This document shows, in pieces, positions 2,340-2,471 of a DNA stretch of 4,877 nt. The stretch lies in the IMG/VR virus record IMGVR_UViG_2690316278_000003; one strand, 5' to 3'. The notes below the pieces were generated by a model. That model was not told the origin of the DNA, made no database searches, and saw nothing but the letters and a program-made list of their open reading frames with translations. The DNA comes from a virus (taxonomy: Duplodnaviria > Heunggongvirae > Uroviricota > Caudoviricetes). Every line of letters begins with the position of its first letter. Position 1 is the stretch's first letter. A program made the position numbers and the translations under genes.

Positions 2340-2404
2340 AGCCTGCTTCTCCTTGCCTTTCGGCACGTAAGAGGCTAACCTAGATTTGCCGTTCATAGAT
2401 TGAG

Positions 2405-2469
2405 CCAGGAATCGAACTGGTGACCTACTGATTACAAGTCAGTTGCTCTGCCTGCTGAGCTAAGTCGGC
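2405..2469 (-). pseudogene. 3'-truncated tRNA-Thr(UGU)-like pseudogene (about 65 nt of 5' tRNA body, no 3' acceptor strand)
   Basis: Minus strand GCCGACT-TA-GCTC-AGCAGGCA-GAGC-A-ACTGA-CTTGTAA-TCAGT-AGGTC-ACCAG-TTCGATT-CCTGG has D-arm, anticodon arm (UGU) and T-loop. The following 7 nt (CTCAATC) cannot pair with the 5' acceptor GCCGACT (1 of 7 pairs), the T-stem is also mismatched, and the CCA position is occupied by ATG. Confidence 0.55.
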
Positions 2470-2471
2470 GC

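Follow-up and report, generated by a model that had tools for sequence, protein, structure and literature searches.

We analysed a 4,877-nt stretch of DNA (IMG/VR virus record IMGVR_UViG_2690316278_000003; Caudoviricetes), referred to below as the window, in which a tRNA-Thr(UGU)-like gene at the end of a tRNA cluster runs directly into a mok/hok toxin locus. The window is the complete contig CXCB01000306.1 of the draft assembly GCA_001255415.1, which comprises at least 306 contigs. All the features of interest lie on the minus strand, and their order is given 5' to 3' on that strand. We conclude, with a probability of about 0.8, that the place where the two elements meet is a strain-private illegitimate recombination junction between two lambdoid prophage segments, at which both breakpoint elements were inactivated. 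The tRNA-Thr piece and the hok piece are probably both dead remnants.

We compared the tRNA side of the junction with the intact tRNA-Thr genes that occupy the same place in the clusters of loci L001 and L005, both of which are called Thr-UGU by ARAGORN. Nucleotides 2469-2408 (minus strand) are identical at 62 of 62 positions to nucleotides 1-62 of the 76-nt prophage tRNA-Thr(UGU) (L001:3232-3307 and L005:5069-5144), an identity that is far beyond chance. The fragment retains the 5' acceptor strand, the D-arm, the anticodon arm (UGU), the variable loop, the 5' strand of the T-stem, the T-loop and C61-C62. Its D-loop bases C16 and C20 are prophage-specific and unlike those of K-12 thrU. Homology ends after C62, where the parental GGTAGTCGGCACCA gives way to TGGCTCAATCTATG, and the final 14 nt of the tRNA are replaced. 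G63-G64-T65 has become T-G-G, which upsets the standard register of the T-stem; positions 66-72 read CTCAATC in place of the 3' acceptor strand AGTCGGC; the discriminator at position 73 is T, and positions 74-76, the site of the CCA, are ATG. The sequence AGTCGGC was found nowhere on the minus strand of the whole window.

ARAGORN called no tRNA at the fragment, its only calls in the window being 2626-2550 and 2548-2472. The Rfam tRNA model gave a local match (2462-2404) that covers model positions 8-63 only, with 33.5 bits against a gathering score of 29. The 76-nt stretch folds no better than its shuffles (z -0.16) and forms no cloverleaf. We therefore rejected a functional tRNA with an unusual acceptor stem, given the negative ARAGORN result, the z-score and the lack of a complementary 3' strand in the contig. 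Judged from the sequence, this copy of tRNA-Thr is without a 3' acceptor strand, a proper T-stem, the discriminator base and CCA, and a cloverleaf is impossible. RNase P and aminoacyl-tRNA synthetases both require the acceptor/T-arm helix, so that the fragment should be neither matured by RNase P nor charged. The same anticodon is presumably decoded by the host chromosomal thrU.

These results agree with the original prediction, made from the letters alone, of a truncated tRNA-Thr(UGU)-like gene with a good D-arm, anticodon arm and T-loop that loses homology after about position 62 (the last matching base is C62, at 2408) and has CTCAATC in its 3' acceptor strand and ATG at its CCA position. 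Both checks proposed with it have been run: the tRNA search returned no gene and no canonical cloverleaf at the fragment, and the alignment to intact tRNA-Thr(UGU) genes and related prophages placed the breakpoint. The extent given for the gene, 2394-2470, describes the replaced 3' end as we find it, but the tRNA starts at 2469, and 2470 is one base too far 5'.

For the breakpoint search, a 551-nt region was compared with 5,426 complete Escherichia coli genomes. The left half (2700-2408) is 100% identical to Ile-Arg-Thr loci, and the right half (2406-2150) is 99.6% identical to loci that carry the annotation hokD. Among right-hand parents the best is L014, a prophage beside ompW in CP064376.1, which is 100% identical over 2,406 nt (2406 to 1). 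The best left-hand parents are L019, L022 and L023, with 99.7-99.8% from 4877 to 2408 or 2556. The position between the two halves, 2407, is T. The tRNA parent has G63 there, and the five hok leaders sampled (E2865, FY26, Ecol_545, FDAARGOS_944 and L014) all have the A of GAGG at the equivalent position; a variant leader with T replacing this A was not found among the five. The join thus consists of one non-parental base with at most 2 nt (GG) of microhomology, which is the signature of illegitimate recombination, neither homologous nor site-specific. The recombination scar that had been proposed, with the hok module replacing the 3' end of tRNA-Thr, is now defined to the base: tRNA sequence runs to 2408, T stands at 2407 and hok sequence starts at 2406.

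The parental cluster contains four tRNAs, Ile-Arg-Thr-Gly or Val, and not the three assumed originally, with holin and lysozyme genes after them. At this position, therefore, the fourth tRNA and the lysis region were lost in the event as well. The right-type parental arrangement is collinear in 2,387 of the 5,426 genomes. Both parental loci co-reside in single chromosomes rich in insertion sequences (IS); CP014099, a chromosome with both, is that of Shigella sonnei FDAARGOS_90 (PMC5447701). The window probably comes from a Shigella sonnei-like isolate, its lineage being one with decaying prophages. The proteins that flank the junction have exact copies in thousands of assemblies.

The junction, on the other hand, is known from one contig only. 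Megablast returned no place that spans the join in the 5,426 complete E. coli genomes or in 50,697 phage records, and exact 31-mer and 20-mer junction searches returned nothing from species-representative genome, viral and metagenome contig collections. The reciprocal junction, in which a hok leader would lead into the 3' end of tRNA-Thr (...CATTAATCTGA / GGTAGTCGGCACCA-tRNA-Gly-holin), was not found in the complete E. coli genomes. We also considered a recombination hot spot and rejected it: scans of viral contigs for tRNA-Thr with a base other than G63 gave just one unrelated Thr/Gly hybrid. A viral-contig scan for hok loci with a base other than A before GGCTCAATC gave none, and hence no other hok locus cut at that point.

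A mok/hok locus without its 5' end

In the window, the hok-derived DNA corresponds to the parental hok mRNA from about +102 onward, the promoter and +1 to +101 having been replaced by tRNA sequence. The parental promoter, located in L002, is TTGGCG-18-TAGAAT, and the mRNA starts (+1) at GGTGCTTGAGGC, the tac element. Gone from the window locus are the promoter, tac, ucb, half of the mok Shine-Dalgarno (SD) sequence and the Sok hairpin/terminator. The window reaches 19.5 bits with the hok leader family RF01794 (gathering score 59), whereas intact loci match it end to end with 107.1 bits (the E2865 parent) and 113.3 bits (FY26). The hok module has been joined to the tRNA cluster as originally proposed, but it is itself 5'-truncated.

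The reading frames were assigned by comparison with the record of the Shiga-toxin phage 933W, where mokW (213 nt) and hokW (156 nt) have a common frame and stop and the antisense sokW (71 nt) covers the first 9 nt of mokW and the 62 nt upstream. The window ATG at 2396-2394 aligns with the mokW start, and the 'in-frame hok extension' described earlier is therefore mok. This ATG does stand at the CCA position of the tRNA; it is, however, the ordinary mok start, 10 nt inside hok-derived DNA, and it falls there because 1+10+3 equals the 14 lost tRNA bases, which is a coincidence and no design. In loci of the 933W mokW type, mok and hok are read in one frame up to a common stop, so that 'Mok' is a Hok extended at its N-terminus to 70 amino acids (aa), with no separate overlapping frame. 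The Mok-Hok open reading frame (ORF) of the window is identical to that of L002 and of L008-L015, and the Hok ORF scores 81.6 bits with Pfam PF01848 (HOK_GEF; cutoff 22).

The junction turns the mok SD GAGG into CTGG. In plasmid R1, Hok toxicity is abolished by either of two single substitutions in this GAGG motif, G105T and A106T, and by promoter mutations (PMC9841398).

The predicted folds changed as well. In the full-length parental hok mRNA, 5' tac and 3' fbi form a closing helix (z -7.2). The window has the fbi-like sequence and the terminator, and the tac partner is absent; the centroid of the chimeric RNA shows no stable 5'-3' closure and does not retain the 5'-3' pairing of the minimum free energy (MFE) structure. 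The mok start lies in its usual hairpin, the hok SD is paired in the conserved local hairpin (centroid) and the tRNA arms are outside the MFE structure. The earlier suggestion that a processed, tRNA-like 5' structure could affect the stability or processing of the hok mRNA finds no support, as the fragment has no acceptor stem, should be no RNase P substrate and leaves its arms outside the predicted fold of the chimera.

On the opposite strand, about 19 of the ~71 nt of Sok are kept and ~52 are lost, and antisense tRNA-Thr stands where the Sok hairpin/terminator was. The parent has, on its antisense strand, a hairpin of -33.3 kcal/mol followed by a U-run (z -5.0), while the equivalent stretch of the window has z -0.41. 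The terminator scan found no terminator-like site on the plus strand over 2300-3400, and none on the minus strand between 2626 and 2115.

Weighing the readings of the junction

In the model that we favour, the left segment, hok-rem-DUF1367-YbcO-DUF1133(Q-like)-tRNA Ile/Arg/Thr, would end after nucleotide 62 of tRNA-Thr, and the right segment, mok/hok-rem-92aa-DUF968, would start at about +102 of the hok mRNA, the two having been joined through the untemplated T and the GG microhomology. Transcription would reach the hok remnant only from the tRNA operon, as a trailer, because no terminator-like site lies between the two. The remnant would also be poorly translated, since the mok SD is cut to CTGG and the hok SD is held in a local hairpin that needs translation of mok to open. 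The Sok remnant, with its promoter region and 5' tail kept, would run on as an antisense transcript across the tRNAs.

Several points weigh against this model. The hok ORF, its own SD (AAGGAG), the 3' untranslated region (UTR) and the terminator are intact, and read-through from the tRNA promoter could still yield some Hok; the silence of hok and the non-processing of the tRNA fragment are both predictions. The junction is seen in the assembled sequence of one whole contig from a fragmented draft. Moreover, the event may have been a deletion, an inversion or a phage-phage/prophage cross, between which one contig cannot tell. We considered a tandem-duplication joint also, as one related chromosome has the parents in that order, and judged it less likely since a second intact flank context should have broken the contig.

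It is unlikely that the join is an assembly or scaffolding artefact, that is, that the segments are not truly adjacent and that the join and its odd T were made during short-read assembly, scaffolding or gap closing. Such an origin would suit a window that is a whole 4.9-kb contig of a draft in at least 306 pieces, and a junction and a DUF1367 allele that are both unique to this contig though the flanking proteins occur exactly in more than 3,000 index blocks. It would suit also the fact that 3797-2556 is an exact two-copy repeat in related complete genomes, the contig entering through the flank of one copy and leaving through that of the other, and that the break on the hok side falls within an 83-nt stretch common to different hok leaders, 3 nt from its end. 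However, the two sides share only GG at the join, which makes a repeat-induced de Bruijn mis-join impossible, and the reads must contain k-mers that cross the join. Ns would normally be left by scaffolding, and the uninterrupted passage of the contig through the join suggests a single context for the flanking k-mers. The clustered patch of five single-nucleotide polymorphisms (SNPs) in DUF1367 resembles a gene-conversion tract and not random consensus noise. Insertion of a hok element by an integrase targeting the T-loop/3' end of tRNA-Thr, with the fragment as half of an att site, appears exceedingly improbable. The region from the T-loop to the 3' end of tRNA genes is a common integrase target, the break is in the 3' strand of the T-stem, and the viral contig L007 also switches sequence directly after TTCGATTCC. 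But elements that target tRNA genes rebuild the tRNA 3' end, and the DNA that came in here does not; what adjoins the fragment is an internal part of a hok leader and then nin-region genes, with no element end. Pfam detected no integrase domain among the neighbouring genes hok, rem, the 92-aa ORF and DUF968. L007 is a Thr/Gly hybrid explained by the GTTCGATTCC that neighbouring tRNAs have in common, and no att site; the viral collection has no further hok locus with a break here.

We also weighed the view that the chimera functions, with mok/hok placed downstream of the tRNA operon and the Q-like antiterminator so that read-through or late transcription yields Hok or the 70-aa Mok-Hok, and the 62-nt fragment serving as a structured 5' leader or processing signal. 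The intact hok ORF, AAGGAG SD, 3' UTR and terminator speak for it, as do the lack of a terminator-like site between the tRNAs and hok, the promoter-like site upstream of the tRNAs, and the K-12 hokD gene behind relBE, which is a precedent for a leaderless hok behind another operon. Nevertheless, we regard it as improbable, and rather more so than an artefact: the mok SD is cut to CTGG, and in R1 toxicity is abolished by the equivalent single changes (PMC9841398); the hok SD remains in its conserved local hairpin in the centroid fold; the tRNA arms stay outside the predicted fold, and the fragment alone is no stabler than its shuffles. The junction is also private to one contig, with no sign of selection. 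A more elaborate version of this idea is a rewired toxin, a promoterless mok/hok, freed from antisense control, that trails a tRNA operon at its 3' end, behind a Q-like antiterminator, so that Hok or the 70-aa Mok-Hok would appear only on late or read-through transcription. The unprocessable 62-nt fragment would be a 5' cap-like structure and might interfere with how the upstream tRNA-Arg acquires its mature 3' end; RNase P normally releases this end by cutting at the 5' end of tRNA-Thr, 2 nt downstream. We consider this version very improbable, and more so than a plain functional chimera.

If the inert junction is the correct reading, its importance is mainly one of annotation. The tRNA-like match is a pseudogene although Rfam at its gathering threshold would report it (33.5 vs 29 bits), and the neighbour that pipelines label 'hokD' is a decapitated hok locus and no working toxin-antitoxin system. 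It would also be a clean, base-resolved example of the raw non-homologous joins that are thought to generate lambdoid phage mosaicism, before selection removes or tidies them.

Layout and gene content of the contig

The features of the window are collected in Table 1.

Table 1. Features of the window, listed in 5' to 3' order of the minus strand as far as possible
Feature	Position	Strand	Basis
First hok gene, 3' end only	4877-4829	-	
First Rem-like ORF	4582-4295	-	
DUF1367 gene	4256-3657	-	
YbcO/DUF1364 gene	3657-3367	-	
DUF1133 / Q-like antiterminator gene, final protein gene of the left prophage segment	2816-3370	-	Pfam DUF1133 356.7 bits, Phage_antitermQ 29.4 bits
Terminator-like hairpin CCCGC-TTTAT-GCGGG then T7, between Q-like gene and tRNAs	2713-2737	-	Read from sequence
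Sigma-70 promoter-like site TTTGCA-18-TATTAT (predicted only), just upstream of tRNA cluster	2636-2665	-	Consensus scan, 9/12 matches
tRNA with CAU anticodon, intact (ARAGORN Met/Ile2)	2550-2626	-	ARAGORN; Rfam tRNA 70.5 bits
tRNA-Arg(UCU), intact	2472-2548	-	ARAGORN; Rfam tRNA 56.4 bits
tRNA-Thr(UGU) pseudogene, nucleotides 1-62 only	2408-2469	-	Identity to intact genes
Junction nucleotide T, in neither parent	2407	.	Alignments
5'-truncated mok/hok	2184-2406	-	99.6-100% identity to hokD loci; Pfam HOK_GEF 81.6 bits
Sok antisense RNA remnant, ~19 nt of 5' tail	2388-2406	+	Mapped from 933W sokW
mok ORF, ATG 2396-2394, stop shared with hok	2184-2396	-	
Second hok gene, ATG 2339-2337, stop 2186-2184	2339-2184	-	
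hok 3' UTR with fbi-equivalent (~2122-2139) and intrinsic terminator (2098-2115)	2094-2183	-	Terminator scan
Second Rem-like ORF		-	
92-aa ORF		-	
DUF968	1356-298	-	

The same DUF1133/Q-like gene precedes the tRNA cluster in L001, L005 and L023. The hairpin that follows it in the window was not flagged by the terminator scan and is overlapped only by weak Rfam matches of terminator type. The homologue of the tRNA with the CAU anticodon is labelled tRNA-Ile by PGAP in L001 and L005. Some Shigella sonnei-like genomes (loci L019 and L022, 6745-6824, equivalent to about 2556 in the window) carry an IS in this tRNA(CAU), 6 nt short of its 3' end. The Arg, Thr and Gly tRNAs are gone from these IS-bearing loci, and ARAGORN still calls a 74-nt tRNA there.

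In the DUF1367 gene, the window differs from the L022-type prophage copy at just five SNPs, which are clustered at 3861-3920 (minus strand). At these five positions it has the bases of the paralogous L021/L016-type copy, and the flanks on both sides are L022-type. From the alignment, the patch looks like a gene conversion of 60-108 nt between two resident prophages. The resulting protein allele occurs in this contig only in the protein index.

The hok-rem module is present twice, as a diverged direct repeat (4877-4249 vs 2229-1629) of 78-89% identity with a spacing of ~2.62 kb, and one contig thus carries a tandem pair of different nin-region starts. On sequence grounds, the two modules are diverged paralogues and not a recent duplication. 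The contig end at 4877 falls within the hok sequence that is repeated at 2181-2229; as the contig and the window are the same, the flanking context is irrecoverable. Downstream of the hok terminator and upstream of the second Rem-like ORF there is a promoter-like site, TTGAAG-18-TAGAAT, at 2046-2075 (minus strand), whose -10 hexamer is that of the parental hok promoter. The 250 nt at 1626-1875, which belong to this Rem-like ORF, are absent from seven of the eight fetched loci that have an identical DUF968 protein (L008-L013 and L015); L014 alone of the eight has them, and it matches the window at 100% throughout.

Weak matches to isrK, a family of Salmonella prophage small RNAs, were obtained at 2094-2175 and 2716-2789 (minus strand), with 25.7 and 19.9 bits against a gathering score of 50. 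The first covers the hok 3' UTR/terminator and the second the terminator region that follows the Q-like gene; intact hok 3' UTRs in L002 and K-12 give the same weak match. These matches probably reflect merely the common shape of a hairpin plus terminator.

Comparison with known systems

The left segment of the window corresponds to the prophage clusters Ile(CAU)-Arg(UCU)-Thr(UGU)-Gly/Val that lie between a Q-like gene and holin in E. coli CFSAN029787 and FDAARGOS_944 and in phage SerU-LTIIb. The upstream gene order is the same, and the Ile and Arg genes and tRNA-Thr 1-62 are 100% identical. Unlike these clusters, the window is without tRNA-Thr 63-76, the fourth tRNA and the lysis genes, and has the hok locus instead. 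The right segment belongs with 933W hokW/mokW/sokW and with the prophage 'hokD' loci (RF01794, PF01848). It shares with them the Hok family, the in-frame mok and the 57-nt offset between mok and hok, and it has also the Sok target region, the 3' fbi and the terminator of the 933W-type loci, with 99.6-100% identity to E2865 and L014 from the break onward.

A break at the same point of tRNA-Thr is seen in L007 (IMGVR_UViG_2833053935_000002; 906-970, minus strand), where the body of a tRNA-Thr(UGU) likewise loses its own sequence directly after TTCGATTCC and receives no ARAGORN call. In L007, however, the 3' part is tRNA-Gly-like and the switch comes right after the shared GTTCGATTCC, whereas the partner in the window is unrelated hok leader DNA. 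The 5' acceptor strand of L007 also differs. The L007 hybrid probably arose by a short-homology deletion between the neighbouring Thr and Gly genes.

The tandem nin/Q/tRNA modules of E. coli FY26 are another arrangement with a prophage tRNA cluster directly upstream of a hok module and a second nin/Q region. Positions 3017-6883 of this locus (L003) carry tRNA Ile-Arg-Arg, STnc100 (RF02076, 106.5 bits), a full hok/sok leader (113.3 bits), hokD, DUF968, RusA, Q and the same three tRNAs again. Unlike in the window, all the tRNAs and the hok leader are intact in FY26, the small RNA STnc100 lies between them and neither element is cut.

The K-12 gene hokD (relF) of the cryptic prophage Qin, in the order relB-relE-hokD-rem-ydfU, is likewise a hok without leader and promoter behind a foreign unit, followed by rem and a DUF968 gene. 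RF01794 gives no match at K-12 hokD. In K-12, homology begins no earlier than ~17 nt upstream of the hok ATG, so that neither mok nor the sok promoter is left, and relBE is the partner. The window still has mok, the Sok promoter region and the Sok 5' tail, and its partner is a tRNA gene. The loci were broken at different points, independently of each other, and the junction described here is a private instance of an already known kind of event. Were the window locus functional after all, it would be the second hok captured by a foreign transcription unit, after relBE-hokD of K-12.

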